A model generated the notes under the pieces. It was not told the origin of the DNA. It did no database searches and saw nothing but the letters and a program-made list of their open reading frames with translations. This document shows, piece by piece, positions 1 to 15,382 of a stretch of DNA of 20,380 bases. Position numbers and translations under genes: made by a program. This DNA is from a virus. Lineage: Duplodnaviria; Heunggongvirae; Uroviricota; Caudoviricetes. The DNA lies in the IMG/VR virus record IMGVR_UViG_3300020577_013140, positions 1 to 20,380 of that record; one strand, given 5' to 3'. Position 1 is the first letter of the stretch. The number at the start of each line of letters is the position of its first letter.

Positions 1-764
1 AGAATAACCGGATCACCATAACTCACCACGGTGCCTTTCTTTACGACACCGTTCGGCTCAATTGTCGCAAGCTGGTTGTTCAGAAATCGGTTGGCAAAAA
101 TGGCGACATACTTATTCTTACCGATCTCAACACCCATTCGCGCTTCCATGCGCATACGGAAAATCTGCTCGGCTTCGAGCTTCTTTGCACCAGACTCCGT
201 AACCACAAAGGCGTCCTCGAAGTTGGATGAACGATACGGCATCACAGCGGTACGGAGATTTGTGCCCATCGCCATCACACCGTTCTCGTCTGTATAGTTT
301 GACACCGCCAACAGCTCCCCTTTTTTCACCTTATCCCCTACTTTGACTTTCGGTGTGTAATGGATAGAGGTCTTTTGCCCAAGGTTATGGTTGTGGTAGA
401 GGTCAAAGGTTTTTACACCATCTGACGTCTTGATCTTGATTTCGTGATCCGTCACCTCTGTAACGGTACCATCGACGTCGCTCTTCTGGCTCAAGTAGTT
501 CTGCCCGAGCTGCTTAACAAAGGAGTCGTCAGCCATGCGAGCCACACTCTGAACCAACGGTGGTTGGCGATGCACGAGGGAGATGGCTTGCAGTGTGGCT
601 TTAGAACCGATCAAGATACGACCGCCCGACACACCACCAAGGCCAGTAACCAGGTTAGCCGGGTAAGAGAAGAAGTCTTTGGTGGACGCAAACTCATAGT
701 CGTGCCCTTCATCGGCAGGAGTTTTCTTCAAGCGTCCTTTATCGAGGACCGTAATTTCGCTCAT
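1..764 (-). CDS. rpoB: DNA-directed RNA polymerase beta subunit, middle/C-terminal fragment (split RpoB-like; runs off the window at position 1)
   Basis: Manual translation from ATG 764 (in-frame TAG upstream at 782-780), open to the window edge, 254 codons: MSEITVLDKG...SGGRILIGSKATLQAISLVHRQPPLVQS...VKVGDKVKKGELLAVSNYTDENGVMAMGTNLRTAVMPYRSSNFEDAFVVTESG...IEPNGVVRKGTVVSYGDPVI. This is collinear with bacterial RpoB [50 protein letters not shown] and LDESGIVYIGAEV..GDILV. Absent from the ORF track because it has no stop in the window. Confidence 0.92.
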   Translation of the reverse strand, partial: MSEITVLDKGRLKKTPADEGHDYEFASTKDFFSYPANLVTGLGGVSGGRILIGSKATLQAISLVHRQPPLVQSVARMADDSFVKQLGQNYLSQKSDVDGTVTEVTDHEIKIKTSDGVKTFDLYHNHNLGQKTSIHYTPKVKVGDKVKKGELLAVSNYTDENGVMAMGTNLRTAVMPYRSSNFEDAFVVTESGAKKLEAEQIFRMRMEARMGVEIGKNKYVAIFANRFLNNQLATIEPNGVVKKGTVVSYGDPVI

Positions 765-771
765 TTGAGTA

Positions 772-823
772 ATGCTACACTACCGGGTTTCGAATTGCAA
801 TTTCATCTGTACCTGTCTACCAT
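772..823. promoter_or_regulatory. Bidirectional sigma70-like promoter pair sharing one palindromic -35 (TTGCAA, 795-800)
   Basis: AATTGCAATT palindrome at 793-802. Plus strand: TTGCAA-17 nt-TACCAT (818-823). Minus strand: TTGCAA-17 nt-TAGCAT (777-772), predicted +1 about 765, next to ATG 764. Confidence 0.65.
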
Positions 824-833
824 GAAGCTATCT

Positions 834-2630
834 ATGGGGACTCTAATGCGTTCCACGCCAAGCTCAAGACAAAACACTCTGCCGTTCAAGGCCGCAACAG
901 TTGCAGTCGACCTCGACGGCACCTTGGCGAAGCATATATCTGCCAAGAAATTTGATCCAACGCGCATAGGTCCTCCCGTACAAAAGATGATGGACAAGGT
1001 GAAACGTTACCTTGAACGAGGCAAGGATGTGGTACTATTTACGGCTCGCGCCTCGGACCCGAGGAATGTACCTCCTGTGCGTGCCTGGCTGGATCGCCAT
1101 AACCTAAGCAAGGTGAAGATCACAAATCAAAAAACTCCTGACATTGAAGTGATCTACGACGACCGAGCCAAGGGAGTACACAAAAACAAAGGCACGATCA
1201 AAAGTGGTTCTGCTTTCGACAAATTAGCCGCGCTTCCTGGCGTTTCCCTCAAGCCGCACCAACAACGGGTAGTCAATCGTCTTAAGCAACCTGGGACCAC
1301 CGGGCTGCTGGCTCAACATGGGCTTGGTTCGGGCAAAACGCTTTCGTCTATCGCTTCCTGGGACGCCTTGGGGCGCCCACGAACCGCTGTGATCGTACCT
1401 GCAGCATTGCAGGAAAACTACCGTAAAGAGCTGACAAAATGGGTGGGGCAGGTTCCTCCCAACGTCAACATCATGAGCCAACAGCGTGTGGCTCGTCAAG
1501 GTGGCCTTTTAGGGCCTGCTCCAGAGTTGATGATTGTCGATGAACAGCACAAGGCCAGGGAACAAAGCTCGGCTCTACGGGCGGCATTGGCCAACATCAA
1601 GGCTAAAAAAAAGCTTCTATTGACTGGTACGCCAATCTACAACCACCCTCAAGATATTGCCGCAACCGTCAACTTGGCGGCCGGTCGCACCCTTTTACCG
1701 ACAGACCGTGCGTCGTTCAACGAACGATACGTCGCCACCGAGAAAGTTAATCCGCCTCTGTTACAGCGCCTCATGGGTGTACGCCCAGGCACAAAACAGG
1801 TACTCAAAAATCGGGGCGAGCTTGGGCGGATACTAAGGCAGTACGTCGACTATCACCCCAACTCGACTCAAGGCTTCCCTCGTTCATCTGAGGAAACGAT
1901 AAAGGTGCCCATGGGCGGAGCTCAGACCGACATCTACAACGCCATCATGGGCAAGGCTCCTCGCTGGGTGCGTTGGAAAGTGAAAGCCGGGCTACCTCCA
2001 GGTAAAGGTGAGTTCGAGGCTATGCGCGCATTCCTTACTGGAGCGCGTCAGGTTTCCAACACCAACCGCGAGTTCACCCGATCCAAAGAAGAAGCTGCGA
2101 AGATTGAAGCAGCGTTCAAGTTTTTCCAGAATAAGGCTAAGGCGGATCCAAGCTATAAGGCAGTCGTTTACTCGAACTACCTGCGAAGCGGTCTATCACC
2201 TTACAAAGACCGACTAGCGCGAGCAGGCATTCCTTACGGCGAGTTCAGTGGTGACATGGACCGGCGCGCACGTGACGAAATGGTAAGACAATACAACGCA
2301 AATAAGCTGCGTGCCTTGCTGATTAGTTCAGCCGGCGCCGAGGGCCTTGACCTCAAAGGCACCCGACTGATCCAGCTGTTGGAACCTCACTTCAACGAAG
2401 AAAAAGAAAAGCAGATCATTGGACGCGGTATCCGATATGGGTCACACGCCGGCTTGTCGCCTGCCCAACAACATGTGCTCGTGCAACGCTACCTGGCGCA
2501 GCCACAAGGAGGTTGGTTCGACCGACTGTTTGGTAACTCAACAACTAGGGGCGCTGACGAGTACATCCGTAACCTCGCCCTGCAGAAGTCCCAGCTCAAC
2601 AATCAAGTACAGCAACTACTGACGCCTTAA
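834..2630 (+). CDS. HAD-family phosphatase domain fused to SNF2-like (SF2) helicase/ATPase
   Basis: HAD motifs VAVDLDGT, VLFTAR, K, IYDDR, then helicase motifs QHGLGSGKT, IVDEQH, LLLTGTP, LLISSAGAEGLDLKG, QIIGRGIRYGSH. The ORF-track start at 444 lies antisense to the RpoB gene; plausible starts are ATG 822, 834 or 846 (834 fits the promoter). Confidence 0.9.
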   Translation: MGTLMRSTPSSRQNTLPFKAATVAVDLDGTLAKHISAKKFDPTRIGPPVQKMMDKVKRYLERGKDVVLFTARASDPRNVPPVRAWLDRHNLSKVKITNQKTPDIEVIYDDRAKGVHKNKGTIKSGSAFDKLAALPGVSLKPHQQRVVNRLKQPGTTGLLAQHGLGSGKTLSSIASWDALGRPRTAVIVPAALQENYRKELTKWVGQVPPNVNIMSQQRVARQGGLLGPAPELMIVDEQHKAREQSSALRAALANIKAKKKLLLTGTPIYNHPQDIAATVNLAAGRTLLPTDRASFNERYVATEKVNPPLLQRLMGVRPGTKQVLKNRGELGRILRQYVDYHPNSTQGFPRSSEETIKVPMGGAQTDIYNAIMGKAPRWVRWKVKAGLPPGKGEFEAMRAFLTGARQVSNTNREFTRSKEEAAKIEAAFKFFQNKAKADPSYKAVVYSNYLRSGLSPYKDRLARAGIPYGEFSGDMDRRARDEMVRQYNANKLRALLISSAGAEGLDLKGTRLIQLLEPHFNEEKEKQIIGRGIRYGSHAGLSPAQQHVLVQRYLAQPQGGWFDRLFGNSTTRGADEYIRNLALQKSQLNNQVQQLLTP

Positions 2631-2642
2631 CCCACTTCGCCT

Positions 2643-2900
2643 ATGCCTCGCCGACGCATCCCAAAACTACGTATCGTCGAAAGGAAACTTGGAAGAGAAA
2701 AAGCATATGGTCAATGTTTTAGTGGAATGGGGCTCATAGAGATCGACCCAAGGCAAGACTCGAAGTGCTACATGGATACGCTGCTGCATGAGATGCTTCA
2801 TGCTTTCTTCCCAAATGCATCAGAAGAAGAGGTTGAAAAGATTGCCCAACGGATGACACAAGAGTTGTGGAAAAGGCATTTTAGGCGCATAAAGCCTTAA
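2643..2900 (+). CDS. Small HExxH (zincin-like) putative metallopeptidase
   Basis: 85 aa; ..GQCFSGMGLIEIDPRQ..YMDTLLHEMLHAFF.. gives strand-strand-helix(HEMLH), typical of minimal phage metallopeptidase-like proteins; starts 12 nt after the helicase stop. Confidence 0.6.
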   Translation: MPRRRIPKLRIVERKLGREKAYGQCFSGMGLIEIDPRQDSKCYMDTLLHEMLHAFFPNASEEEVEKIAQRMTQELWKRHFRRIKP

Positions 2901-2924
2901 GCTGAAACTGCTTCCAACTATTAC

Positions 2925-2952
2925 TTGCGCCACTACGTTCCTGTGTTACATT
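2925..2952 (+). promoter_or_regulatory. sigma70-like promoter with extended -10; predicted leaderless transcript
   Basis: TTGCGC (2925-2930), 16 nt, TGtTACATT (-10 at 2947-2952); predicted +1 is 2959, the A of the ATG. Confidence 0.55.
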
Positions 2953-2958
2953 GCACCC

Positions 2959-3276
2959 ATGAGTATCGCAGCAAAACAATTACTGGAAGACGTCAATACC
3001 TACTTAAATAACAAGCCTACGCTCAAGAAGATAATCGTCGAGCTCGGGTACGTCTTCTCGGGACGCCACATTCTGGTCAAATTGGCGGAGCCAGACGACG
3101 AGACAAAGCTGACACGTAAGATGGTGGTATTTGAACTGTATGACGCAGACGACTATACCAGGGAAGTACCGTTCTGCTTCCTCTACGACAGACAAGAGGA
3201 AACTGGAGTGATAATGCCGTTTCCGTTCTCAAAATACAAAGATCTCGTAAAGAAAGACACAGCAGTCGAAAGCTAA
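2959..3276 (+). CDS. Hypothetical protein (105 aa)
   Basis: ATG-started ORF bounded by a promoter and a terminator; globular-looking sequence, no recognised motif. Confidence 0.75.
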   Translation: MSIAAKQLLEDVNTYLNNKPTLKKIIVELGYVFSGRHILVKLAEPDDETKLTRKMVVFELYDADDYTREVPFCFLYDRQEETGVIMPFPFSKYKDLVKKDTAVES

Positions 3277-3306
3277 AAAAAGGCCCGGGGGTTTCCCGGG
3301 CCTTTT
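3275..3306. terminator. Bidirectional intrinsic terminator
   Basis: A7-GGCCCGGG-ggttt-CCCGGGCC-TTTT lying between convergent genes (3276+ and 3319-). Confidence 0.9.
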
Positions 3307-3318
3307 GTGTAATAGGAC

Positions 3319-3717
3319 TCAACGTCCTTCAATGACCACTCGATATGCCTCGAGTGCCTTCTCAGCCGTGACACCTTGTCGGACGAGATGCTCGACAACC
3401 TTGTGTTTGCGGTTGTAGTTTCCACCATGACACGCGCGCTTGGTCAATCCGACGTAGGTGTAAAGCGCCTGCCAGACCGGTTGGCGGGCGATGAACTTCT
3501 TGGCGCACCACATCCATAAAGGGCCGTCGAATCCACGGTCACACAGGTAGAGCTGGAACATGTGTACAACGTCGCCAGCCTCTTCTTTCACCCCGCTCCA
3601 ACGCCCATGGAGTAACTCCTCGAGCAACTCAACGACTTCCATCCATACACGCCGAAGGCGAAATCGTATATTTTGCGTGTAGAGCCGACGGTACTCGGAG
3701 ATCTTCATTCTGGTCAA
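3319..3717 (-). CDS. MazG-like all-alpha NTP pyrophosphohydrolase domain protein
   Basis: EVVELLEE...VKEEAGDVVHM matches the ExxE...EExxD spacing of MazG-like folds; ATGA overlap with the upstream gene. Confidence 0.5.
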   Translation of the reverse strand: MTRMKISEYRRLYTQNIRFRLRRVWMEVVELLEELLHGRWSGVKEEAGDVVHMFQLYLCDRGFDGPLWMWCAKKFIARQPVWQALYTYVGLTKRACHGGNYNRKHKVVEHLVRQGVTAEKALEAYRVVIEGR

Positions 3718-4274
3718 GAAGCGGCGACCCAGACAGCTGCTAACGGGATGTGGTTCGCTTTAACGAAGTCAAACAGCGCAGTATTGGGGTCTTTTGCGCT
3801 CTTGCGGAACGCACGCCAGGCTTCGAGGGAGCAAAGCCCCTTTAACGCAAGGTTTTGCACCACGCCTTCATCCGAGTGGTCTAGCGTCTCCTTGTCTTCA
3901 TCCACCGGCACCGCCGGTGCTCCTGATGCTTCCGGTGCGCCAGATTTACCATAAGTTGGTGGGCTGCTGTAAGTTGGCTCGTTTAAGCCAAGCTCGTATT
4001 GTATCACCTGCTCCAAACACGTCATGTATCCATGAATGTCAACGATGTTGTCCCACTTATGGTTCTCCACCTGGCGTGACAACTTCACGCAATTCATGAT
4101 GATTGGAAAGTCACGAGCATTGAGCGGGCGATACGTCCCGTCTGACTTCCGGAACTCATAACCCAGCGCCGAAAGCATACCAGCAATTCGAGTAAAATCG
4201 TGGTAAGGGTGTCCGTAGTCTCGTTGACGTTCAGTCGTTACTAGTGAAGCACCGATTTCTTGGAGGTTGTTCAT
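3714..4274 (-). CDS. DUF6378-like phage protein with low-complexity C-terminal extension
   Basis: ERQRDYGHPYHDFTRIAGML...IIMNCVKLSR...KWDNIVDIHGY fits the R..YG.P...F.rIA / M..lK..R / D...D..GY pattern I associate with DUF6378; ATGA-coupled. Confidence 0.65.
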   Translation of the reverse strand: MNNLQEIGASLVTTERQRDYGHPYHDFTRIAGMLSALGYEFRKSDGTYRPLNARDFPIIMNCVKLSRQVENHKWDNIVDIHGYMTCLEQVIQYELGLNEPTYSSPPTYGKSGAPEASGAPAVPVDEDKETLDHSDEGVVQNLALKGLCSLEAWRAFRKSAKDPNTALFDFVKANHIPLAAVWVAAS

Positions 4275-4528
4275 TGAGTCGTTGGGGGAGTGGGGGAAGC
4301 TTCCGTTCTGGAAACCATGCCTTCGGCGATATGCTGAAGGTTTATTAGATTCTCGACTTCCTCGTCGAAGATCAACACCTCGCCGAGTTTCTGCATGACA
4401 GCCTCAGCCGTTAGCTTGATCACTTGCTCGCCGGTGGCGGCATCGCCCGCAGCGCGCGCTTCCTGCATGCCGGCTACAAGCCCTTCGCATACCGCGCGAT
4501 AAATTACTGTGGATGCTCTAAATTTCAT
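4271..4528 (-). CDS. Hypothetical helical protein
   Basis: Likely start ATG 4528 (AAAGGT upstream, overlapping the RNase H stop), not 4591; stop overlaps the next ATG. Confidence 0.65.
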   Translation of the reverse strand: MKFRASTVIYRAVCEGLVAGMQEARAAGDAATGEQVIKLTAEAVMQKLGEVLIFDEEVENLINLQHIAEGMVSRTEASPTPPTTQ

Positions 4529-5009
4529 TAGCACCTTTTTCTTGAGCGAGTTTTCTGTACTCGCCATGTGCGATTTTGTCGCACTTCTCATTGTACTTGT
4601 TGCCGTCGTGGCCTCTGACCCACGTCACACGCAACACAATTCCGAGGTCGCGTATCATACCAAGAACAGTATCCATTGCAAGCCAAAGAGGAAGGTTTTT
4701 GACGTTCTTCCACCCCTTTGCTTTCCAGGCAAACCGCCAGGTGTTGACACCGTTCACGACGTATTCGGAATCGCTAATAATATGGTAGTCAGGGATTGGT
4801 CCCTGACGCTCGGAGGGCGTACGCTTAATAATCCAGTCAATGGCTTCAAGCACTGCCATCAACTCCATCTTGTTATTGGTGACGCCTTCATAAGCCTTGC
4901 TGTGAGGCTCCTCCGTACCATCAGGGTGCACCGCAATGAACGCCCAGGCACCATACTGAGTTTTGTAATGCGCCGAGCCGTCCGTGTAGATTTGAATTGT
5001 TTCAGCCAT
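4518..5009 (-). CDS. rnhA: Ribonuclease HI
   Basis: IYTDGS, TNNKMELMAV, IISDSEYVVNG..W..KGWK, WVRGH.GNKYNEKCDKIA: all D-E-D-(H)-D catalytic motifs of RNase HI. Start ATG 5009 (MAETIQIYTDG). Confidence 0.97.
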   Translation of the reverse strand: MAETIQIYTDGSAHYKTQYGAWAFIAVHPDGTEEPHSKAYEGVTNNKMELMAVLEAIDWIIKRTPSERQGPIPDYHIISDSEYVVNGVNTWRFAWKAKGWKNVKNLPLWLAMDTVLGMIRDLGIVLRVTWVRGHDGNKYNEKCDKIAHGEYRKLAQEKGANEI

Positions 5010-5217
5010 TCTCAGCAAATACAGAATGTACGTTGGCTGGGTCCGTGACGTCAAGGACATCCACGACACCATTACCAAACTGGTCCTCGTGCTCCTTGAC
5101 TATTTCTTTGATTGTCAGATGCGTGGTAAATGGTCTCCACTTCGTAGTATTGTTCATGTGACTTCCGATCAAGGTACCTTCGACCCATATCAGAATCAGG
5201 TGTCTTTGTTTATTCAT
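5002..5217 (-). CDS. Hypothetical protein (71 aa)
   Basis: Overlaps both neighbours by 8 nt in a coupled minus-strand run. Confidence 0.65.
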   Translation of the reverse strand: MNKQRHLILIWVEGTLIGSHMNNTTKWRPFTTHLTIKEIVKEHEDQFGNGVVDVLDVTDPANVHSVFAENG

Positions 5218-5566
5218 GGGCGTCTGACTGCTGCAGTCGCTCTAGTTGCTTTCCAAGTTTCTTAACTCGGGTGGAGAGTGCTTTTACAAGCTCTCGTAAC
5301 TCCTCGAGGTTCCCCGTACCGACGCTCTTCGGGCCATCGCACTCTCGCACAATGTCTTCGTCGCCATAGCCCCCGATCACGTATCCTCCCTCGCCGTTCT
5401 CTCCGGCGTCCTTGTCAAAGAACGTAAACTCGTAAACCGGACCGCCGCAATACCCGCCTTGCTTTTTGTTGGAGAGACATTTGGCAGGACCGGAATATCC
5501 TCGATGCAAGTTGCTACCAGGATCTTCGATCCAGTACCACTTACCTACTGTTAGTTTGATTGGCAT
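5210..5566 (-). CDS. Hypothetical protein, beta-rich N-terminus with C-terminal coiled coil
   Basis: 118 aa; ends in heptad-like LEELRELVKALSTRVKKLGKQLERLQ. Confidence 0.7.
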   Translation of the reverse strand: MPIKLTVGKWYWIEDPGSNLHRGYSGPAKCLSNKKQGGYCGGPVYEFTFFDKDAGENGEGGYVIGGYGDEDIVRECDGPKSVGTGNLEELRELVKALSTRVKKLGKQLERLQQSDAHE

Positions 5567-5578
5567 ATGTTGCTAGCT

Positions 5579-5606
5579 AAAAAAGGGCGCCGATGAGGGC
5601 GCCTTT
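5579..5606 (-). terminator. Terminator-like hairpin
   Basis: Minus strand reads GGCGCC-6 nt-GGCGCC-C-T6, downstream of the lysozyme block. Confidence 0.55.
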
Positions 5607-5631
5607 GTGCCCGTCTTTCGACGGTAAGTAA

Positions 5632-5835
5632 TCAACCAAGCATCGAAAGGCTTTCGCCTTCGCTTGGCCGATATTCCGGATAGCCCGGAAGGGTAGAAAG
5701 ACACGGCGCAGGAGGAGGAGGAGCAGGCTCGTCTTCGTGCCACCGCTTTTTCGGAGAGCGACGAAGATCTGCAGCTGGTCGATCAATTGCCTCCAACGGA
5801 TGCGGCCGCTCGCCCCAACGTCGAAATCCCATCAT
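5632..5835 (-). CDS. Small Pro-rich hypothetical protein
   Basis: ATGA overlap with the lysozyme stop; a competing ORF exists in another minus frame (5577-5786). Confidence 0.4.
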   Translation of the reverse strand: MMGFRRWGERPHPLEAIDRPAADLRRSPKKRWHEDEPAPPPPAPCLSTLPGYPEYRPSEGESLSMLG

Positions 5836-6227
5836 AGGTACCTCCTGACTTTTTGCCAGTATCCTTCGGTGGCCTTGCGTTTCCAGCCGGCTGGTCCACC
5901 GTTCCAGATCCTGGCCAAGTCCTCCGGTGTCGGAGGACGTCCAAGTTGTTTTTCACTTCCATAGAAGGAGAGGTACTTGTTGCATACCTCGATTGCCTTC
6001 GCCCGGTTGCGCATCTCGCGATGCGTGTATTTGGTGCCGTACAGCCTGTTCACGTCTGCAACGACCGCCGAGTGCACCTGTAACGGCCCGATGGCCGAAC
6101 CCTCATCTCCGACCACGTGGTCACGTCCAGAGGACTCGACCTGAATCAGTGCGTCGATGAGCCTTGGATCAGCGGCGGAGCACGTCCCACTGAATCCCAG
6201 AGCGAGGAGAAGTACTAGAAGTTTCAT
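5832..6227 (-). CDS. Lysozyme-fold muramidase/lytic transglycosylase (i-type/destabilase-like) with N-terminal signal peptide
   Basis: ALIQVESSG (catalytic Glu helix), GPLQV, ARIWNGGPAG. MKLLVLLLALGFSGTCSA/AD is a Sec-type signal. AGGGA lies upstream of ATG 6227. Confidence 0.85.
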   Translation of the reverse strand: MKLLVLLLALGFSGTCSAADPRLIDALIQVESSGRDHVVGDEGSAIGPLQVHSAVVADVNRLYGTKYTHREMRNRAKAIEVCNKYLSFYGSEKQLGRPPTPEDLARIWNGGPAGWKRKATEGYWQKVRRYL

Positions 6228-6372
6228 AGTGTTCCCTGACAGGTTCAACCACATGAACCCGGCGTTCCGACAAGAGCTGCAGCCGCGTCATGACCTCACG
6301 GAGGGCAGGACTGCGGACATCAAGCTCTGTCGATGGTTGAAAAGGGATTTCCTCCAGTATCAGTGTTTTCAT
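6169..6372 (-). CDS. Hypothetical protein (67 aa)
   Basis: ATGA-coupled to the upstream gene, but its 3' end overlaps the lysozyme start by 59 nt. Confidence 0.45.
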   Translation of the reverse strand: MKTLILEEIPFQPSTELDVRSPALREVMTRLQLLSERRVHVVEPVREHYETSSTSPRSGIQWDVLRR

Positions 6373-6668
6373 CCTCTGACCTGGTTGACGTGTTTCACGG
6401 TGACACCAACCTCCTCCGGGTTGGCGAGAACCAGCGTTCCGACCGCCTCGATGGCGGTCTTTCCGCGCGCCTCCGTACTGGGAAGATTATCCAAGTCGGC
6501 GGTGAAATACGGGCCGTCCGTAGAAGTAAGGTGGGTAACCACCAACTCACGAGGCTCTTCTCCTTCGTCGAGAAGTTTGGAGCCTTGCCAGGTCAACCCG
6601 ACGACGATCAGGAATAACACCACCACTCCACCAACAAAGCCGAGACTGAAGGACATTGGGTCGATCAT
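6369..6668 (-). CDS. Membrane-anchored protein with HicB-like domain
   Basis: N-terminal TM segment FSLGFVGGVVVLFLIVVGLTW; GPYFTADLDNLPSTEARGKTAIEAV resembles the HicB N-terminal pattern (Y.a..pdLPg..t.G.T.eEA). Confidence 0.5.
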   Translation of the reverse strand: MIDPMSFSLGFVGGVVVLFLIVVGLTWQGSKLLDEGEEPRELVVTHLTSTDGPYFTADLDNLPSTEARGKTAIEAVGTLVLANPEEVGVTVKHVNQVRG

Positions 6669-6697
6669 ATAATCGGATAGAGCTTAGTTGTTGCGGT

Positions 6698-7210: not shown

Positions 7211-7281
7211 ACCGTAGTATTCCTTTCTACTGACAGTTAATAATGGGGTGACGGCTTAATCGCCGGAGAGACTTAGTGCTC

Positions 7282-7297
7282 TCAGGTTATTATACCA
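7282..7297 (-). promoter_or_regulatory. Extended -10 promoter, copy 1 of GGTATAAYAACCTGA
   Basis: Minus strand TGGTATAATAACCTGA (TGn-TATAAT), just downstream of a terminator. Confidence 0.7.
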
Positions 7298-8058: not shown

Positions 8059-8086
8059 TTGACAACCCCCCATCCTGTGATACCTT
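8059..8086 (+). promoter_or_regulatory. sigma70-like promoter for the HUH gene
   Basis: TTGACA (8059-8064), 16 nt, TGaTACCTT; predicted +1 about 8093, in-frame GTG at 8098. Confidence 0.7.
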
Positions 8087-8097
8087 GTCTCACTACT

Positions 8098-10341
8098 GTG
8101 GATCGCTTTAATCGTGACATCGTTGAGATCGCCCTCTCCTTGGAAGAAGGAGAAGTGGTTGATTTACACTCGTTTATGACTCGTGCCTTCCCCCACAGGA
8201 AGGTTTCGGATCGCTACAAGCACGGAAATTATCACACGAATGCCGAGGCTATCGTCCTGAGCTCCTGGTCCAATCGCAAGGCCTACATCATGTGTGGAGC
8301 CCCCGGATACGCTGGCGTGCCCTCCTGCTGCCATCAGACCCTCGTCTGTGAGGCCTGCTGCAAGAAGGCTGCAGCACGCATGTACGTCCGCTACCAACAC
8401 GCCTTTGAACAGGCACAGCACTGGTACTCGATCACCTACTCCTTCAAGACGAATATCTTCCTCGACACTGCCACCAAGGAAGAGTTCCTGAACCGCTACA
8501 AGGTGGCAGACGCGTTTATCCGCTCCCTGCGCTCCGCTGGCCTTATCCATGGGGCTGTCGCCGTACGTGAAATATCCATCAATTCCTTTCAGGGCAAGGC
8601 TGTATTCCCTCACACGCACGTCGTCGTCAACTCTGACCGCTCCGACCTTATCAATGAAGACGGTACCTATCACACCGCCATTGCAGAGGAGGCAGCCCGC
8701 ACAGGCGTCTCCATCAAGGTCACACGCATCACCGATTCCTCTGTATTCCTTACTCAGCTCAAATACCCCCTGAAGCCTATCAACATCAAGTCCCTCTACG
8801 AACAGGAGGCAGTCAACTATGATTACAATGAAATAAACCTGGGCTTGGATACTGTCCTGTGCCGCCTCACCGAATACGGCAAGGGTACCCCACGTATTGT
8901 TTATTATGGCAACATGGATGCTCGCTGCAAGGATTACATGGGAGAGGACATGAACCAGCAGAAGAGGGCAAAGCGCGCCCTGGCTCGGGCACAGGTCGCT
9001 CCTCAACAAACTAAAGAATTGAATTCTGCCTCTGCCCCCACTAAAATGGTCACAGTGCAGCTAGACCCTGCAACTACGACTATTATGCCCTATGCTCCTC
9101 AACCGGTGATGCCTCCCCAGACCCAGGCACCGCAGAAAAAGAAGAACTTCTGGGGGCCTCTCGCTCTCGGTGTGGGTGCCGGCATTGCAGGTCTCGGTGC
9201 ATACGACCAGTTCGCCAATCATGGGCGGGCTACCAGTGCGGTCCTGAATAGCCTCAAGAGATACTTCCCTTCCAGTGCACAATCGAGCGTAATGCCTCCT
9301 CCAGTCGCTCGTAACCCTGTTCCCCTTGGTCCTGCCCGCACCGAGGCCGCTGTCATCGCAGACATGACCGCAGGACGCGTAGGTGGTCACTTTAATGATG
9401 CTGGTCGTAATGCCTTGCCTGATTGGCTGCGTCTGCAACGTGATGTGGCCAAGGACACCACCTTCGCTGGTATTCCGGGACACGCTGTTTCCACTGGTCC
9501 TTCGCCTGTGGCTCGAGTTGCTTCTGACCCTCGCTTACCTCGTATATTTACTTCCCCTGAGGGTCAGGCGGCCTATCGTGCCTTGTCTTCACAGCAACCT
9601 GACACTGGAGCTGCCCTCGGTACGTCTGACCTTTTGTCGAATGTTATTCCCACTGGTGCGGCAGTCGCTGACATCGGCGTATTTGGTGTTAATGCTTCAG
9701 GAGGACTATCCGGGTTGCTGAGCAAGATTCTTCCCAAGGTAGGTATTACTTCTCCCAAGGTGCTTGGTCCGCTGTCTCGTATTTCCTCCTTTGCTTCCCG
9801 GCCTATATTCGGTGGTCCTAGTGCGGCCGGTTCCATTACGCGGGCCACCACGCCTATCCTTGGTGGTGCGATGGGTTATTCCGTTGGCTCCAACCCGCTG
9901 AACGTTGAAGCCTACATGGATGCCTTCAAGGATTTGCCTCCTGAACGTGCTGCCTTGGCTTCTCGTTTATTTGGCACGCTCGGCGGTTCAGCGATCGCCC
10001 GGCGCTCTCCTTTTCTTGGAAGTTCTCTTGTAGCAGGCGCAGCAGGACTCGTAGGGCGTGCTAGCTCGCAGATAGAAGACATGACCGGCTCTGTGGCTGA
10101 GCGTGGGGCCTTTGGTGATGTGCTGAACCGTTTGTATCGAGGTGCTCGTGCTGGTAACCCTGAGTACCGCATTGCGTTGGAAAATGCATTGAAATACGTC
10201 GACAGTAATCCACAGCTCGCCGGAGCCATTGCTGGTAAAGAACAACCCTGGTACCGCTCTTGGCCTGTTACGGAACAGATGGGTGACTCTCCGGCGCTTC
10301 AAAGTTTGATTAACAAATCCAGACAGGCTATCCTTGAGTGA
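8098..10341 (+). CDS. Rolling-circle Rep-type HUH endonuclease fused in frame to a Pro/Gly/Ala-rich probable virion protein
   Basis: Zn-knuckle C(8293)...CCHQTLVCEAC, motif I-like YSITYS (about 8425-8442), HUH PHTHVVV (8608-), motif III KYPLK (Tyr 8764). After about 9050 the sequence is low-complexity, with a hydrophobic GPLALGVGAGIAGLGAYD helix. No stop between the two parts. Confidence 0.75.
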   Translation: MDRFNRDIVEIALSLEEGEVVDLHSFMTRAFPHRKVSDRYKHGNYHTNAEAIVLSSWSNRKAYIMCGAPGYAGVPSCCHQTLVCEACCKKAAARMYVRYQHAFEQAQHWYSITYSFKTNIFLDTATKEEFLNRYKVADAFIRSLRSAGLIHGAVAVREISINSFQGKAVFPHTHVVVNSDRSDLINEDGTYHTAIAEEAARTGVSIKVTRITDSSVFLTQLKYPLKPINIKSLYEQEAVNYDYNEINLGLDTVLCRLTEYGKGTPRIVYYGNMDARCKDYMGEDMNQQKRAKRALARAQVAPQQTKELNSASAPTKMVTVQLDPATTTIMPYAPQPVMPPQTQAPQKKKNFWGPLALGVGAGIAGLGAYDQFANHGRATSAVLNSLKRYFPSSAQSSVMPPPVARNPVPLGPARTEAAVIADMTAGRVGGHFNDAGRNALPDWLRLQRDVAKDTTFAGIPGHAVSTGPSPVARVASDPRLPRIFTSPEGQAAYRALSSQQPDTGAALGTSDLLSNVIPTGAAVADIGVFGVNASGGLSGLLSKILPKVGITSPKVLGPLSRISSFASRPIFGGPSAAGSITRATTPILGGAMGYSVGSNPLNVEAYMDAFKDLPPERAALASRLFGTLGGSAIARRSPFLGSSLVAGAAGLVGRASSQIEDMTGSVAERGAFGDVLNRLYRGARAGNPEYRIALENALKYVDSNPQLAGAIAGKEQPWYRSWPVTEQMGDSPALQSLINKSRQAILE
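9019..9047 (+). promoter_or_regulatory. Internal near-consensus sigma70 promoter inside the HUH fusion ORF
   Basis: TTGAAT (9019-9024), 17 nt, TAAAAT (9042-9047); predicted +1 about 9054, with in-frame GTG 9055 and ATG 9085. Confidence 0.65.
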
Positions 10342-10342
10342 T

Positions 10343-11194
10343 ATGACGACAGATCCGTACACACAATTTAAGCAGGCCTTTCTTGACCAGGCGTTATTGA
10401 AAGGCTACGACGCTGACTTCCTTGAAGGGTTCTTCAAGCGGGCCGAGGACGAATACTCTCAATGGGAGACCTTGGTTGAGTTGACCTACAAGGGCGACAC
10501 TGCTCTTTGCAAGCAGGCCTACGCCGAGTTGGCTGCTTCCTTGGGTACTTATGGAGTAAGCGATAAGATGGCTGAAGCTTCCGGCATGGGGCCTGAGATC
10601 CTTGGGTTGCTCACCCGCCTTGGCGGCAGCACTGCTGGCATGTTTGGTCAATCAGGTGGGGCAGGACTTGGTGGTGCTCTGGTCGGGGGTGGAGGCGGTT
10701 TATTGATCGGGCTCATTCTCTCCCAGATGCTCGGTATCCCTCTTTCCACTGGTATGTTGCTCGGGGCCCTTGGTGGTGCTGGTCTCGGATATGGTGCCGC
10801 AGGTACCCCGGCAGGACAACACTCCATCTTTGGTTCCCCAGATGCTCCGCCGCCGAAGCTACCGAATGCCTCTCAACCTGCACCAGCACCGAATCATTCG
10901 GCTGCCAATGACGTTGCGGCCAATCAGGCGGCTTCAAACCAGGCTGTGGCTGGTGTGTCCCCCAAGCCCCAAGCTCCGTTGCCTGGGCCTGGTGGGCAAC
11001 CCGTCGCTCCTCCTGAGCAAATGGGGCCTCCACCAGCACCAGAAAAACTAGGCCCGCCGCCAGCTCCAACACCTGCTCCTGCTCCGAATGCCGGCGCCCC
11101 TCAGCCGCTCCGACCAGGCACACAATCTCCCGGTATTCCACCAATCGGTGCACCGGCTCTACCCACACCGCCAAAACCACCAGGAGCCAAGTAA
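10343..11194 (+). CDS. Glycine-zipper membrane-type protein with Pro-rich tail; probable virion protein
   Basis: ATG 1 nt after the upstream TGA; GGAGLGGALVGGGGGLLIGLIL..GMLLGALGGAGLGYG; four K-x-A motifs in the N-terminal 80 aa. Confidence 0.8.
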   Translation: MTTDPYTQFKQAFLDQALLKGYDADFLEGFFKRAEDEYSQWETLVELTYKGDTALCKQAYAELAASLGTYGVSDKMAEASGMGPEILGLLTRLGGSTAGMFGQSGGAGLGGALVGGGGGLLIGLILSQMLGIPLSTGMLLGALGGAGLGYGAAGTPAGQHSIFGSPDAPPPKLPNASQPAPAPNHSAANDVAANQAASNQAVAGVSPKPQAPLPGPGGQPVAPPEQMGPPPAPEKLGPPPAPTPAPAPNAGAPQPLRPGTQSPGIPPIGAPALPTPPKPPGAK

Positions 11195-11195
11195 T

Positions 11196-12074
11196 ATGAA
11201 CGATCTTTATATCGAGGAACTCATTGATGGGCTACAGGCCGCGTTATCCAAACGTGGCAACGATCTTTTCAGTAGCTCTCCAAACGGAGCCTCATTATTC
11301 CCTTCCATGACCTCACAGGCAAAGTGGAAATTCGCCAAAGGCGAGAACTTTCTACGATTGCACGACGGGCAGAAGGTCTACGCCTTTAAGCTGCCCACAG
11401 GCCTTTCTCACACTGAGGACTTTGCCGCTCATCGAGAAGCGGACCTGGACCCCAGTGTTTTTGCCGAAGGGGCCACACAGCAAGGACTGGCGCAAGTACA
11501 TCGAGCTGACCCAGGATCCATTTACTTTACCTTGCAGGAAGGACGGGATAACCCAACCTTCACGTTAAAGCACACCGGAGAAAGTAACTGGCGAGGTACT
11601 CCAAAGAAACGCAAGGCGAAGGAACTGGTGGTACCAAACATCGATCATGCTGCCATGGCCGAAGGGATCAAGGCGGCTTTCGACGGGAAGAAAGAACCTG
11701 TTAAAAAGGCTGACTTCGCCCCTTTTAGTTTCGCTGCAGGTCCCGGCGCCCATGCCCTGCAGCGTCTTGCTTTTTCCCCGGGCGAGTTAGTGCATCGACT
11801 AGGTGATGGTGGAAAAAACAATTTCCTTGGTGCCCTCGGTGCCGCCGGACTTGGTGCCGGCGCTGGTGCGGCTTACCATCTTGGAAAGCGTACCTTGTAC
11901 AACACAGAGGACGAGAACCAAATGGAAGATGAACAAGGGAGCAAACCACTACTGAGGCGCATGCTGACTCCTGCGCTTGCCGCTGGTGTAATCGGCGGAG
12001 CACAATCCTCGTTGTTTGACAACCAGTACAACTTGCTCGAGAGCGGAGCAGGGATGGGCACGAAAGTATTTTAA
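11196..12074 (+). CDS. Glycine-zipper protein; probable virion protein
   Basis: ATG 1 nt after TAA; ELIDGLQAALSKRG leader; FLGALGAAGLGAGAGAAYHLGKR and ALAAGVIGGA segments. Confidence 0.8.
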   Translation: MNDLYIEELIDGLQAALSKRGNDLFSSSPNGASLFPSMTSQAKWKFAKGENFLRLHDGQKVYAFKLPTGLSHTEDFAAHREADLDPSVFAEGATQQGLAQVHRADPGSIYFTLQEGRDNPTFTLKHTGESNWRGTPKKRKAKELVVPNIDHAAMAEGIKAAFDGKKEPVKKADFAPFSFAAGPGAHALQRLAFSPGELVHRLGDGGKNNFLGALGAAGLGAGAGAAYHLGKRTLYNTEDENQMEDEQGSKPLLRRMLTPALAAGVIGGAQSSLFDNQYNLLESGAGMGTKVF

Positions 12075-12457
12075 TGAGTACGACAATCCTCAGCAAATTG
12101 CGCTCATTGCGTGTCGGACGCCCTCAACAACCTGCTGAGGCGCCACCAGTGCCGTCCTTTGATGGCCCTGCCCTGCGTAGTGCGATCAACCGCGATAGTA
12201 GTCTCTCAAAGGCCGAGCAGTCTGAGTTACATGGCTGGCTGGATAATCCAGAGACAATCAAGGGGTTGCAAAGCGGGGGCATCGGTGCAGCTCTGAGCTA
12301 TATGGTCGCCAAGTTCCTCAAACTCAAGCCACAAACCCAACTTTTGTTATCGATTGCGGGCTTCGGAATTGGTAAGATCATCTACGACTACAAGACCAAC
12401 CCAAAGAAGTTTAGCTCCTATAACGAGCAGTTACGAATGTATGAAATCCACAACTGA
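12074..12457 (+). CDS. Small protein with two hydrophobic Gly-containing helices
   Basis: TAATG overlap; GGIGAALSYMVAKF and LLLSIAGFGIGKIIYDYK. Confidence 0.8.
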   Translation: MSTTILSKLRSLRVGRPQQPAEAPPVPSFDGPALRSAINRDSSLSKAEQSELHGWLDNPETIKGLQSGGIGAALSYMVAKFLKLKPQTQLLLSIAGFGIGKIIYDYKTNPKKFSSYNEQLRMYEIHN

Positions 12458-12836
12458 TTTGTTGCCGGCGGAAGCACTGGCCTCTCATCTCAAGTGCGCC
12501 CTGGCGCTAAACCTCGGCAAGGCCGGGCACAGCCTGTATGAGCTGGAAGAGGCGTTGGCCGCCAAAGACACTGAAAAGACCGCCAAGCTGCTGAAGGCTG
12601 CAGGCGACTCTCCGCTCTCGTCGTTGAAATCCCTGTTTGACGTAGCCAGCGGAGGGCTGATGATCGGCGCAGGCACCGCGGCAGCTGCTGGCGGCGTCGG
12701 TGCTGCCGGCCTCTACGGGGCTTACAAGGGGCTACAGGACTCTAAGAAAAGAATCGATGACGCAAACGCCGTTCGTCAACGTATGGATATTGCGCGTCGA
12801 GAGCTCGAAACAGAGCTGGCCGGGCACGCACGCTAA
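12441..12836 (+). CDS. Gly/Ala-zipper protein with C-terminal coiled coil
   Basis: Likely start ATG 12441; EKTAKLLKAAG, GLMIGAGTAAAAGGVGAAGLYGAYKG, then a heptad-like tail. Confidence 0.8.
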   Translation: MKSTTDLLPAEALASHLKCALALNLGKAGHSLYELEEALAAKDTEKTAKLLKAAGDSPLSSLKSLFDVASGGLMIGAGTAAAAGGVGAAGLYGAYKGLQDSKKRIDDANAVRQRMDIARRELETELAGHAR

Positions 12837-12841
12837 GAATT

Positions 12842-13186
12842 ATGAATCGCGAGGCATTTAGCGATCTTTCTGACTTGTCATCCAGGGACGTTCCACCGGA
12901 GCGTGATTTGGAGGCCGAGCTGTTTAATAGACGGTCCATCAAGGACATGGTCACCAACATGGAAAAAGAGTTGGGGCTGTCTCCTGGGAAAAAGGCAAAG
13001 GAAGTAAGACGCCACGTCGACATCCTTGCTCCCGGGCGAGAAGAGGACGGGCAAAAGCTTTCTCGTATCTTGAATGACGACAAGACGTACCGGATTATCA
13101 TGTGGAAAGACACCTGGACTGTACACGGTGACTTCCGCGTGTTTCTAATTTATGAAGAGTTTGTCGACGACAAAAAGGCAAAGTAA
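12842..13186 (+). CDS. Hypothetical protein (114 aa)
   Basis: Tightly spaced in the operon; charged, with a beta-rich C-terminus (YRIIMWKDTWTVHGDFRVFLIYEE). Confidence 0.8.
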   Translation: MNREAFSDLSDLSSRDVPPERDLEAELFNRRSIKDMVTNMEKELGLSPGKKAKEVRRHVDILAPGREEDGQKLSRILNDDKTYRIIMWKDTWTVHGDFRVFLIYEEFVDDKKAK

Positions 13187-14040
13187 TGAACACCAAACAA
13201 TCTAACTGGGCCGGCACTCTAGGTGCTTCGGCCGCCGTCGGCAGCGGAACCTTTGCCCTCGGCGCACTCATCCAAGAAGTCATGCGTCAGCGCGATGCTA
13301 ACGCCCAACGCAACCGGCAGCAACTGCCAGACAACGCTCTGGTAATTGACCTGCCGCGTAGAGCGGAGAAGAAAGCAGCCGACTTGTCTGCTCCTTTCCT
13401 CAAACAGGCAGACGGGATGCTCTCAACCGCCTTGGCACTGCTAGCTGGTGCGCCTGCCGGGTACCTCGGCACAAAGGCACTTTACGACGGAGTCAAAAAG
13501 AAGCAAACGGACCGCGAAATCGGTGACGCTAACTTGAAGTACATGCAGACGCTGCAAGCACTTCAACAAAAGACCGCCGCGCTTTCTTTGCCGTACGTTG
13601 AACAGTTTTGCAAGGCTGCGGCTGAGAACCTGGTCAAGGACGCCGGACTGGAAAAGGTATTGCCGTGGCTGGCTACGCAAGGAGCAAAAATCCCAGGTGC
13701 TGCGCGTACCGGTCAATGGGTGACCAGCCATGCTCCACAACTAAAGCGATCACTGCCTGCCCTCGCCGGCGGAACCGCTGCTGGTGTTGCCGCCGACGAC
13801 TTTGGTGCGTTCGACTGGCTTAAAAGCAACCCAGCCACCCCAGGACCTGGAACTTTTGGTGCGATTAAAGATGGCGCAAAAGACGCGTGGCTCACGATGG
13901 CTGTCCTTTCCGCCTTAGGTGGAGCTGGTGCCATGGTGCATGCCAACAACAAGAAGACCAACCGGGAAAACTCTGGCCCTCCTTCTGCTGTCGCGTTGAA
14001 CTACGAGGATATTCCTCCTGCCGCTGCGTTGCAGCACTAA
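13186..14040 (+). CDS. Multi-Gly/Ala-zipper protein; probable virion protein
   Basis: TAATG overlap; four hydrophobic Gly/Ala segments separated by K-x-A motifs (KKAA, KQAD, KTAA, KAAA, KDAG). Confidence 0.8.
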   Translation: MNTKQSNWAGTLGASAAVGSGTFALGALIQEVMRQRDANAQRNRQQLPDNALVIDLPRRAEKKAADLSAPFLKQADGMLSTALALLAGAPAGYLGTKALYDGVKKKQTDREIGDANLKYMQTLQALQQKTAALSLPYVEQFCKAAAENLVKDAGLEKVLPWLATQGAKIPGAARTGQWVTSHAPQLKRSLPALAGGTAAGVAADDFGAFDWLKSNPATPGPGTFGAIKDGAKDAWLTMAVLSALGGAGAMVHANNKKTNRENSGPPSAVALNYEDIPPAAALQH

Positions 14041-14044
14041 CTGT

Positions 14045-14677
14045 ATGGATCGTGACGCCTTTTACGCAGGTTACGCCGAGGCCCTTTCAAAGAATGCAGG
14101 CATGGTTAATTGGGCTCGGGAAACGTTTGGTCAACCGCTGGTCCAGGGACACATTGATGGTCACTACAGCGGGCTTGGCCGATACAATACCTCGACAGGC
14201 GGCGTTGATCCACATACTCGCAACGCCCTTCAAATGGTGATGGGTAATACCCCTGAGCCTGTGGGTGTAACCGGACACTCCTCCATTCCGTACATGGATA
14301 GCATGCGTAAAGCCATGTACCAGTTTGGCTCCAGCCGCTTTGGGAAAATGCTGGGTGACCGCATAGTTCCTCCGAGTACCGTCAACAACCGGCTTACCTC
14401 TGCGACTGGTGGGGTATTCTCAGCAGGCAATGACGGAGTACAGGTCGACCGATCTAAAATTCCTGGAGCGTTGTTTAACAAAGTCAAGGATTGGGCGAGC
14501 TCACATGGCAACTTGCTAAAAGGCCTAGGCTTCGGAGCTGCGGCTCTTGGGCTTGGCGCCATGGCTTTCAACGGGCGTCAAAGCAACCAGAGACAGGTCG
14601 CTGCACCAGCCGGGCAACAAGCGGCACCGTTCAACGGGCGCGAAGGAAATACCTTTACCAAATACCAGGAAGTCTAG
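14045..14677 (+). CDS. Gly-rich protein with AFYAGYAEALSKNAG leader and C-terminal hydrophobic helix
   Basis: MDRDAFYAGYAEALSKNAG...LLKGLGFGAAALGLGAMAFNGR. Confidence 0.8.
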   Translation: MDRDAFYAGYAEALSKNAGMVNWARETFGQPLVQGHIDGHYSGLGRYNTSTGGVDPHTRNALQMVMGNTPEPVGVTGHSSIPYMDSMRKAMYQFGSSRFGKMLGDRIVPPSTVNNRLTSATGGVFSAGNDGVQVDRSKIPGALFNKVKDWASSHGNLLKGLGFGAAALGLGAMAFNGRQSNQRQVAAPAGQQAAPFNGREGNTFTKYQEV

Positions 14678-14683
14678 TATAAC
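14654..14683 (+). promoter_or_regulatory. Possible promoter for the RpoB N-terminal fragment
   Basis: TTTACC (14654-14659), 18 nt, TATAAC (14678-14683), giving +1 = 14690, the A of ATG; an overlapping TAGTAT is an alternative -10. Confidence 0.45.
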
Positions 14684-14689
14684 GTCGTT

Positions 14690-15382
14690 ATGTCTGCTCA
14701 CGTACCAGGAATGCATGATCTCGAAATCCCTGACCACGCCAGGGCTTTTTTTGATCCCGATAAAACCCGTAAGTGGGTGCAAGAGAGCACGATTCAAGGT
14801 CTCCACGAGCATCTGAACAAACTGGAGACCCCAGACTTCAAGTTGCGTGTAAAAGATCTTCGAGTCCAGGATCCTAACAAACGATTCAACCTGCAGGAGC
14901 AGAAACAGGCGACCCTCGATCGGCATGATTTAACGCAAGCAGTTAAAGGCACAGTTGAACTAGTCAACAAAAAGACCGGCGATGTGGTGGACACCAAGAA
15001 GGATCTCACACTGGTCCATATCCCTTGGGTTACCGACCGTAACACCGTTATCTACAACGGGTCTGAGTACAATATCACCAGCCAGCAACGGTTGAAACCT
15101 GGTGTCTACGCCCGTGTCAAGGATACAGGCGACATCGAGGCACACGTCAACGTAAAGGCCGGAACAGGTAGCGGCGGTAAAGTCATTTTCTTTCCAGACA
15201 AAGCGTTGTTTATCTACCAGGTAGGCACTACCCGTATCAAGCTGTACGGGCTGCTTCATTCCCTTGGCGTATCGGACGCTGAGATGGAAGAAGCCTGGGG
15301 CAGCGAAATCTTTCACAAGAACAAGCTGGCTCATGAAGGGAACGAGCTGGAAAAGATGCACGACAAGCTCTTCACCTATTGA
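14690..15382 (+). CDS. rpoB: DNA-directed RNA polymerase beta subunit, N-terminal fragment (split RpoB-like)
   Basis: LVHIPWVTDRNTVIYNGSEYNITSQQRLKPGVY matches RpoB G.IPLMT..GTFvING.ERVIVSQL.RSPGVy; the preceding ..DLTQAVKGTVELV.. and following KLYGLLHSLG also fit the RpoB N-terminal lobe. Stops after 230 aa. Confidence 0.88.
   Translation: MSAHVPGMHDLEIPDHARAFFDPDKTRKWVQESTIQGLHEHLNKLETPDFKLRVKDLRVQDPNKRFNLQEQKQATLDRHDLTQAVKGTVELVNKKTGDVVDTKKDLTLVHIPWVTDRNTVIYNGSEYNITSQQRLKPGVYARVKDTGDIEAHVNVKAGTGSGGKVIFFPDKALFIYQVGTTRIKLYGLLHSLGVSDAEMEEAWGSEIFHKNKLAHEGNELEKMHDKLFTY

Follow-up and report, generated by a model that had tools for sequence, protein, structure and literature searches.

The virus record IMGVR_UViG_3300020577_013140 raises the question of how a phage could use an RNA polymerase (RNAP) beta subunit whose coding sequence lies in pieces. 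The record is a single linear contig of 182,660 bases with an estimated completeness of 83%, and its first 20,380 bases (the window, in which positions are the same as in the contig) hold two genes resembling parts of bacterial RpoB. A third piece was found on the same contig beyond the window, and it is very probable that the three, designated N, M and C, are free-standing pieces of one ancestral gene which now serve as parts of an RNAP made of four polypeptides. The contig has no terminal repeat and carries an unrelated gene at its far end; base 1 is the end of the contig as well as of the window and the 3' portion of the C gene is therefore absent from the record. The source is an uncultured giant phage with a genome of about 225 kb.

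Three genes tile one RNAP large subunit

An earlier note, made from the sequence alone, had described an RpoB N-terminal lobe in a plus-strand gene of 230 codons with its own stop, and a minus-strand RpoB gene running off base 1 and containing a 'RALMG..Q' region and NFED; both open reading frames (ORFs) were present (Table 1). The C protein matched the Pfam family RNA_pol_Rpb2_6 (8.9e-11), the N protein had no match in Pfam, and both matched a single PHROG, phrog_24349 (1191 positions), N at positions 61-151 and C at 612-835, a joint match which, on these profile hits, is far beyond chance. A profile built from N and 21 relatives matched bacterial beta chains in the PDB (1.6e-10, beta residues about 72-200), with profile positions 96-141 corresponding to E. 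coli beta 113-158. The AlphaFold model of N (predicted local distance difference test, pLDDT, 81.6) superposed on B. subtilis beta 32-243 and E. coli beta 30-373; its best structural match had a Z of 8.4 and a root-mean-square deviation of 14.3 A over 189 aligned residues, the high deviation being consistent with two domains oriented differently in the isolated model. In a full-length relative of C, residues 21-264 aligned to E. coli beta 650-894, a stretch which includes GGRILIGSKATLQA (the 'RALMG..Q'-like region of the C piece) and NFED. Both proteins could be aligned to RpoB, and the E. coli positions given in the note for these motifs were upheld.

The note had further argued that the middle of beta, including the rifampicin pocket, was missing from both genes, so that either a third gene or a large deletion was needed. 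The closest annotated phages were Salmonella phage Arash and Vibrio phages D69, D148 and D181; in Arash and D69 the N and C matches fell within one ORF, of 1525 amino acids (aa; gp206) and 1527 aa, respectively. A search with gp206 over the whole contig returned three matches (Table 1), one of them in a gene not contained in the window. This M piece matched Pfam Rpb2_3 (24.6 bits; cut-off 21) and its profile aligned to E. coli beta 403-576, which on this alignment is the rifampicin-pocket and fork region. The third gene was thus recovered, and its presence excludes the large deletion. The order on the contig is C (-), 14 kb, N (+), 12 kb, M (-), spread over 28 kb, which bears out a beta subunit in at least three pieces on opposite strands.

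In a joint alignment on gp206, N corresponded to aa 8-228, M to aa 224-470 and C to aa 475-726; together they cover aa about 8-726, with an overlap or gap of at most about 5 residues at each joint. This near-perfect tiling leaves no space for extra domains at the breaks. The protrusion/lobe, fork (Rpb2_3) and hybrid-binding (Rpb2_6) regions follow one another across N, M and C in the order in which they occur in beta.

Table 1. Positions of the RNAP pieces, their neighbours and related elements (unprefixed positions in rows for this contig are contig positions; aa, amino acids)
Sequence	Feature	Position	Strand	Details
This contig	C piece of RNAP large subunit	764..3, open at base 1	-	ATG at 764; 254 codons present; Rpb2_6
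This contig	N piece	14690-15382	+	Own ATG and TGA; 230 aa; beta N-terminus, beta1 domain, first part of beta2 lobe
This contig	M piece (beyond the window)	27684-28373 (L005:7304-7993)	-	Own ATG and stop; 229 aa; rest of lobe/protrusion and fork with rifampicin-pocket region
This contig	Match to gp206 aa 18-210	14777-15346	+	In N
This contig	Match to gp206 aa 231-469	28367-27690	-	In M
This contig	Match to gp206 aa 484-725	737-6	-	In C
This contig	SNF2-family helicase	834-2630	+	N-terminal HAD/PNKP-phosphatase-like domain; divergent from C piece
This contig	DUF6378 protein	3714-4274	-	Between C and N
This contig	RNase H	4518-5078	-	1.5e-26; between C and N
This contig	SLT transglycosylase-like protein	5832-6254	-	Weak, exactly at Pfam cut-off; between C and N
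This contig	Strong terminator-like hairpin	15902-15933	+	14 pairs, 8 G-C, T-run; after N and ORFs 15416-15667 and 15636-15878
This contig	Cys-rich ORF	15912-17699		573-595 aa
This contig	Long open frame	17705-27232	+	About 3175 aa (3181 aa in nearest relative)
This contig	Cys-rich protein, DUF6171	27237-27683 (L005:6857-7303)	+	148 aa; 1.7e-06; convergent with M, ends one base before M stop
RXKB01000001.1	beta'C	9177-11030	-	617 aa; Rpb1_5
RXKB01000001.1	Two unknown genes	Between beta'C and C
RXKB01000001.1	C	12619-15603	-	994 aa; 87% identity over the 254 aa held here
RXKB01000001.1	SNF2 helicase	Divergent from C	+
RXKB01000001.1	N	29048-29740	+	230 aa; 88% identity
RXKB01000001.1	M	Near 42.1-42.8 kb	-	229 aa; 94% identity
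Vibrio phage D181 (OZ196140.1)	Group I intron RF00028	L062:2104-3015		100.7 bits, E 1.6e-26; followed by homing endonuclease gene
G003 (G003:C1)	Interrupted C gene	L061:765-5313		IMG/VR record behind L012
G003	Hint module in beta'C gene	L061:7643-9001
Cobetia phage Carin-5 (PV155638.1)	Sigma gene, then two RNAP genes	L059:720-7545		RNAP genes of 1083 and 927 aa

The remainder of the enzyme in relatives

The note had also proposed a search for beta-prime (beta'). Rpb1_2 and Rpb1_5 were not found in the 182,660-base contig, because the contig is a fragment and ends inside the C gene; the NADFDGD-type motif falls beyond the contig end and hence outside this record. The nearest relative, GenBank RXKB01000001.1 (L044/L054/L055; 226,528 bases), is collinear with the contig at 70-75% nucleotide identity, and base 1 of the contig corresponds to about its base 14,840. 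The relative is filed under a 'Candidatus Dependentiae bacterium' assembly, a jumbo-phage genome having been binned with a bacterium whose own rpoB and rpoC sit on a different contig.

The Pfam domains of the relative's C protein are Rpb2_6, Rpb1_1 and Rpb1_2, and the regions to which it aligns are E. coli beta 650-894 and beta' 180-516. DxDGD and both lysines of the double-psi beta-barrel (DPBB) were invariant when six C pieces were aligned, and in relatives the beta'C gene and the C piece are 1.6 kb apart. The full C gene of the present phage is expected, from this alignment, to encode about 994 aa, comprising the C-terminal half of beta (region E, sandwich-barrel hybrid motif, DPBB and flap) and the N-terminal half of beta' with DxDGD. 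As the relative encodes a 994-aa C and a 617-aa beta'C, the enzyme would consist of four polypeptides.

Pfam domains in Arash gp206 were Rpb2_2, Rpb2_3 and Rpb2_6, then Rpb1_1 and Rpb1_2, while those in gp216 (606 aa) were Rpb1_4 and Rpb1_5; gp206 thus joins beta to the beta' N-half, and gp216 supplies the remaining, C-terminal half of beta'. Virion proteomics of Arash detected gp206 as the most abundant protein and placed gp216 in the top five, and the same study labels gp206 plainly 'beta' and describes neither the fusion nor split relatives (PMC10585845). Judged by sequence, the enzyme of the present phage belongs to the family of Arash and Vibrio phage D69, as a fragmented variant: homology to gp206 runs along its length, the relative's C reaches gp206 aa 1524, and the family branch is supported against the outgroups by a Shimodaira-Hasegawa-like approximate likelihood ratio test (SH-aLRT) value of 100. 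Across all three pieces, identity to the Arash and D69 sequences (gp206 and the 1527-aa protein) was 27-33%; the second protein of each pair is gp216 in Arash and one of 609 aa in D69. The domain order is also shared, namely beta, the beta' N-half and a separate, nearby gene for the beta' C-half, as seen in the three-piece relatives; betaC and beta'N with DxDGD stand on one polypeptide in the nearest relative and in other three-piece genomes, the gene here being cut at codon 254. The single beta ORF typical of Arash is not shared. In Arash and D69 one beta-beta'N ORF adjoins the portal gene, whereas here three ORFs, each with a start and a stop of its own, are spread over 28 kb on both strands. 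No homologue of alpha (RNA_pol_A_bac) was detected in two near-complete relatives or in Arash.

The split is conserved and under purifying selection

A metagenome search restricted by length returned 103 free-standing N homologues, mostly of 216-260 aa and 45-88% identity, from many assemblies and on contigs reaching 226 kb; the C-terminal end of these proteins is conserved. Scans of IMG/VR with single N, M or C proteins gave no matches and an alignment query was needed, with which 38 loci were found; among these, L016-L031 carry C (-), N (+) and M (-) at spacings of 4-9 kb. Exactly the three pieces and beta'C are also present in a complete genome of 204 kb that has terminal repeats (G004). 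The ATG and stop of each piece are conserved in relatives, and the lengths of the pieces are fixed down to 41% identity. Compared with the nearest relative, the ratio of nonsynonymous to synonymous substitution rates (dN/dS) was 0.041 for N and 0.041 for M, and for the C piece the proportions of nonsynonymous (pN) and synonymous (pS) differences were 0.105 and 0.805.

These results bear on two other explanations of the layout. That a chimeric metagenomic contig has put the parts of one gene in three places might be suspected from a contig which begins inside a gene; it is barely credible, as identical order and orientation were found in a different phage at 70-75% nucleotide identity, assembled twice independently (NCBI and Logan assemblies), more than 15 IMG/VR contigs of other samples show the identical layout, as does the complete genome with terminal repeats, and the start and stop codons of each piece are at homologous positions. 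The pieces could also be decaying remnants of a rearranged RNAP gene in a phage that relies on the host polymerase, a view to which their dispersal over both strands and the lack of a detected sigma or beta' in the contig would lend themselves. It is very unlikely, since synonymous sites approach saturation at a dN/dS of about 0.04, the ORF lengths are fixed and the functional motifs invariant, and in collinear relatives the beta' parts adjoin C, so that the contig end accounts for the lack of these parts here. Wide conservation of the split together with dN/dS of about 0.04 therefore excludes both an assembly artefact and pseudogene decay.

Position of the breaks and relation to phiKZ-type enzymes

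Both cuts fall in poorly conserved linkers which are of variable length in the fused proteins. At the N/M cut the N model reaches about E. coli beta 373 and M starts near 385, which places the cut inside the beta2 lobe, shortly past the insertion site of beta-i4 (dispensable region I, or SI1). In E. coli this insertion spans residues 226-345 (PMC2939025). The N/M position follows it within this lobe by a few tens of residues, but what bacteria have there is an insertion and not a chain break. In B. subtilis beta about 100 additional residues fall exactly between the match of the N end (243) and that of the M start (about 340-368), and the site therefore tolerates insertions. Functional E. coli RNAP was reportedly reassembled in the 1990s, by Severinov and colleagues, from beta fragments cut in dispensable regions.

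The M/C cut lies at about E. coli beta 616-630, past the fork and just ahead of conserved region E. By domain order it presumably resembles the B''/B' break of archaeal Rpo2 in methanogens and halophiles, which we take to lie between the fork (Rpb2_3) and hybrid-binding (Rpb2_6) regions. The beta splits of phiKZ do not coincide with the archaeal one (Sokolova et al., PMC7598289). Archaeal B''/B' and cyanobacterial and plastid RpoC1 (gamma)/RpoC2 are likewise large-subunit splits whose parts assemble non-covalently, and in cyanobacterial gamma the beta' break is past the DPBB, the relative's C ending at about gamma residue 550 of 624 (Synechococcus). The cellular split genes are adjacent and co-oriented, whereas the pieces here are 13-14 kb apart on opposite strands.

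The earlier note had framed the enzyme by reference to the phiKZ-like phages, and membership of the phiKZ/AR9 family, as a virion or a non-virion set, was therefore weighed. The two share separately encoded and dispersed beta and beta' parts without alpha or omega (in the phiKZ non-virion RNAP gp123 as betaN, gp71-73 as betaC, gp55 as beta'N and gp74 as beta'C, with gp68; in the AR9 non-virion RNAP gp105, gp089, gp270, gp154 and gp226), a beta break just upstream of region E, and group I introns with homing endonucleases in RNAP genes (phiKZ gp72; Vibrio phage D181 in the present family). The beta' break follows the DPBB, as in phiKZ-type enzymes (PMC7598289). phiKZ gp71 is assigned to phrog_18919 and also to phrog_3295, which holds gp71-73; C matches both profiles with an offset of at most 1 position near residue 125-200, the match to phrog_3295 (3.9e-21) being confined to the DPBB. 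A short region-E-like motif, aligned by eye, occupies residues 29-44 of gp71 and 47-62 of the C piece. On these PHROG profile offsets and this motif, the M/C cut appears to lie within about 20 residues of the cut between betaN and betaC of the phiKZ non-virion enzyme.

Family membership is nevertheless improbable. The sequence family here appears distinct and is much nearer to bacterial beta and beta': the best matches were to Arash, D69 and bacterial beta and beta' (1e-41), and no phiKZ or AR9 chain was among the PDB matches listed. A direct hhalign alignment of the C piece with gp71 was weak (probability 9.5%, over 58 columns only). BetaC and beta'N form one polypeptide here but are separate in phiKZ (gp71-73 and gp55; PMC8287921), betaN is cut in two here, and there is one gp206/gp216-matching set in the complete G004 and the 93%-complete G005, whereas phiKZ-like phages have two. 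The phiKZ-type frame was thus replaced by an Arash-type one. The note's suggestion that the split points may differ from those of phiKZ was upheld in part. Rpb2_3 was not detectable in phiKZ. PhiKZ-type betaN is described as a single protein (PMC7824862), so the N/M cut is without a counterpart in the published descriptions consulted; the M/C cut is close to a phiKZ one. In its working the present enzyme would resemble the split RNAPs of phiKZ and AR9, while its sequence probably sets it outside their family.

Assembly of the pieces

Multimer modelling, a check proposed in the earlier note, gave N+M a complex score of 0.81 compared to 0.12 for the best of three controls; 58 of 80 solved complexes attained this mark, as did 2 of 110 mismatched pairs. 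At least 92% of the contacts (about 340) recurred across the three runs, with partner pLDDT of at least 80. In the model the halves fit together as they do in beta, which is no proof of binding, and the pass may stem from likeness to solved bacterial beta. Modelled alone, M had a mean AlphaFold pLDDT of 48.6, which would fit a piece that is no independent folding unit.

A further possibility is that the pieces are rejoined, by split inteins as in cyanobacterial dnaE or by trans-splicing group I/II introns, leaving the beta chain unbroken. Mobile splicing elements have indeed hit this gene family. In D181 the group I intron splits the RNAP fusion gene into coding sequences of 514 and 1006 aa, where the sister phage D69 has one of 1527 aa; it is inserted just upstream of region E, about 40 residues downstream of the M/C site. 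In the G003/G001 lineage, a sister lineage, the C gene ends inside DxDGD ('...GYGAD' followed by 13 residues and a stop), and the next ORF, of 573 aa and in another frame, carries an intein splicing domain with LAGLIDADG, which ends '...KN' ahead of 'SDGDQLNV...', and continues into the last ~95 aa of beta'N. This element could be an atypical split intein, with an N part of 13 aa and a C part of ~475 aa, or else an intein carrying a frameshift; a Hint module is also present in the beta'C gene of G003, and Rfam detected no intron in the G003 locus.

For N, M and C rejoining is nonetheless highly improbable. Intein halves would not fit into joints with an overlap or gap of at most about 5 residues; the conserved ends of N ('...KLFTY') and M ('...IPE[VH]') lack both intein blocks and a Cys/Ser/Thr +1 context; Pfam gave neither a Hint nor an intein domain in the three proteins, and Rfam gave no intron across contig bases 1-40380; and each piece keeps its own ATG and stop in relatives. 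Because the breaks show neither intein nor intron, the pieces are likely to assemble non-covalently.

Expression and points against a four-polypeptide enzyme

By analogy with Arash, the three-piece enzyme may be packaged in the virion and carry out early transcription. Several observations weigh against the preferred reading of N, M and C as parts of a four-polypeptide RNAP. The record holds only 254 aa of C and no beta' parts on a contig that is 83% complete; the contig being a fragment, the count of four polypeptides is taken from relatives with 87-94% identity at the protein level. No clear sigma-like factor (Sigma70_r2) was found in this contig and a complete relative gave a sub-threshold match only, while Arash gave clear matches. 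Three-piece enzymes are known from genes and models, and packaging in virions has been seen solely for the fused Arash enzyme. Finally, no promoter motif common to the three genes was found in 7-mer and sigma-70 scans: there was no 7-mer enrichment upstream of 232 rough gene calls, and the sigma-70 pattern was found at 15 sites compared to 9.2 +/- 3.1 in shuffles, the three piece starts not being flagged.

A Shine-Dalgarno sequence was absent ahead of all three pieces. In many relatives it was likewise absent, and a TAnnAT-like box was seen by eye 6-9 nt before the ATG, with TTGATA about 17 nt farther up in some C genes. The box and the lack of a Shine-Dalgarno sequence hint at leaderless mRNAs, which the pattern scans neither support nor exclude. 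The terminator-like hairpin downstream of N (Table 1) probably ends the N-piece transcription unit.

Direction and proposed course of the fission

Three arrangements were distinguished among the loci. A single ORF of 1440-1527 aa occurs in L033, L036-L043, Arash and D69; in the two-piece form (L034, L035) N and M are fused (483-493 aa) and C (1023 aa) lies 4-6 kb downstream on the same strand; the remaining loci are of the three-piece form. L032 also has N and M fused, and the locus ends ahead of any C gene. In a tree rooted on two bacterial RpoB sequences and the beta of Cobetia phage Carin-5, the three-piece forms made up one clade (SH-aLRT 100) nested among fused forms, and fission is therefore the derived state. 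The two-piece forms grouped with the fused forms (SH-aLRT 96), while an approximately unbiased test of a single clade of two- and three-piece forms gave p = 0.054; the M/C break may have arisen once or twice. The 4-6 kb insert of the two-piece forms has no recognisable homing endonuclease, its genes being a 2-oxoglutarate-Fe(II) oxygenase and DUF6321, and there is therefore no direct trace of the fission mechanism.

Carin-5 has a 154-kb genome in which a sigma gene is followed by the two RNAP genes (Table 1), a more distant phage multisubunit arrangement that served as outgroup only. One database entry, CAKLQF020000005.1 (L058, 'Acinetobacter phage MD-2021a'), is a bacterial chromosome fragment with tuf, secE, nusG, rplKAJL, rpoB and rpoC, and its 'phage rpoB' matches are host genes.

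The proposed course of events builds on the established homology and tiling of the pieces, the conserved split under purifying selection, the catalytic residues kept in relatives and the nesting on the tree. The ancestral gene would have encoded a single protein of ~1500 aa, consisting of beta and the beta' N-half. In a clade of uncultured phages of ~205-226 kb the beta part would have been cut twice, in poorly conserved linkers, and the pieces then scattered by rearrangement. N (230 aa), M (229 aa) and C (about 994 aa) would each be made on their own and assemble non-covalently with beta'C (~617 aa) and without alpha, like other split RNAPs.

According to the account given in PMC7598289, Lavysh et al. 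put forward the idea that intron mobility followed by rearrangement created the split RNAP genes of phages. The D181 intron and the G003 intein fit this idea, which may apply here too. The loci may even represent a living fission series, from one gene (Arash, D69) through an intron-interrupted gene (D181) and two genes (L034, L035) to three scattered genes and a DxDGD-intein form (G003), the splits being derived states that arose as a small number of permissive linkers were repeatedly invaded by mobile elements and rearranged; this broader reading is held tentatively, at somewhat less than even chances.

Neighbouring genes

The SNF2-family helicase gene is divergent from C, and the 69-base spacer between the two, including AATTGCAATT, is conserved in the nearest relative, where the layout is the same. 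SNF2 helicases have been associated with phage RNAP genes (Iyer et al. 2021, PMC7824862), and the helicase is possibly an RNAP-associated factor, although it is not established as part of the enzyme. Helicases adjoin the RNAP genes of Arash too, one of them virion-associated.

Most of the space between N and M is filled by the long open frame, which is preceded by a Cys-rich ORF. The first 892 aa of the long frame had no Pfam or PHROG match, and its product is probably a virion protein.

Implications for phage RNA polymerases

To our knowledge, separately encoded multisubunit phage RNAPs are known solely from the phiKZ/AR9 group, and the origin of the split there is debated, between an ancient multi-piece enzyme and secondary fission by intron mobility. 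A primordial multi-piece origin was proposed for phiKZ-type enzymes by Iyer et al. 2021 (PMC7824862). No paper on the gp206 fusion, the split clade or the N/M site was found among open-access papers and preprints. In the present family fused, two-piece and three-piece forms coexist with the split nested in the fused forms, and the direction of change is therefore readable. If the fission series is real, one permissive linker would have been used independently here and in phiKZ, and split RNAPs would not be relics of a primordial multi-piece polymerase. The N/M lobe cut would then be a new, naturally validated split site, and the 994-aa chain with both catalytic barrels a natural bridge toward single-chain two-barrel polymerases.

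For annotation, proteins of 230 aa that count as 'hypothetical' in over 100 metagenomic phages are RNAP beta pieces. Small, separately expressible modules would also be useful for structural work on the assembly of alpha-free RNAP. As an experiment made by nature, the family would show which places in beta tolerate a cut without loss of assembly, the lobe site among them, and it would be a case in which the gene for an essential enzyme was broken up stepwise while the enzyme continued to work.

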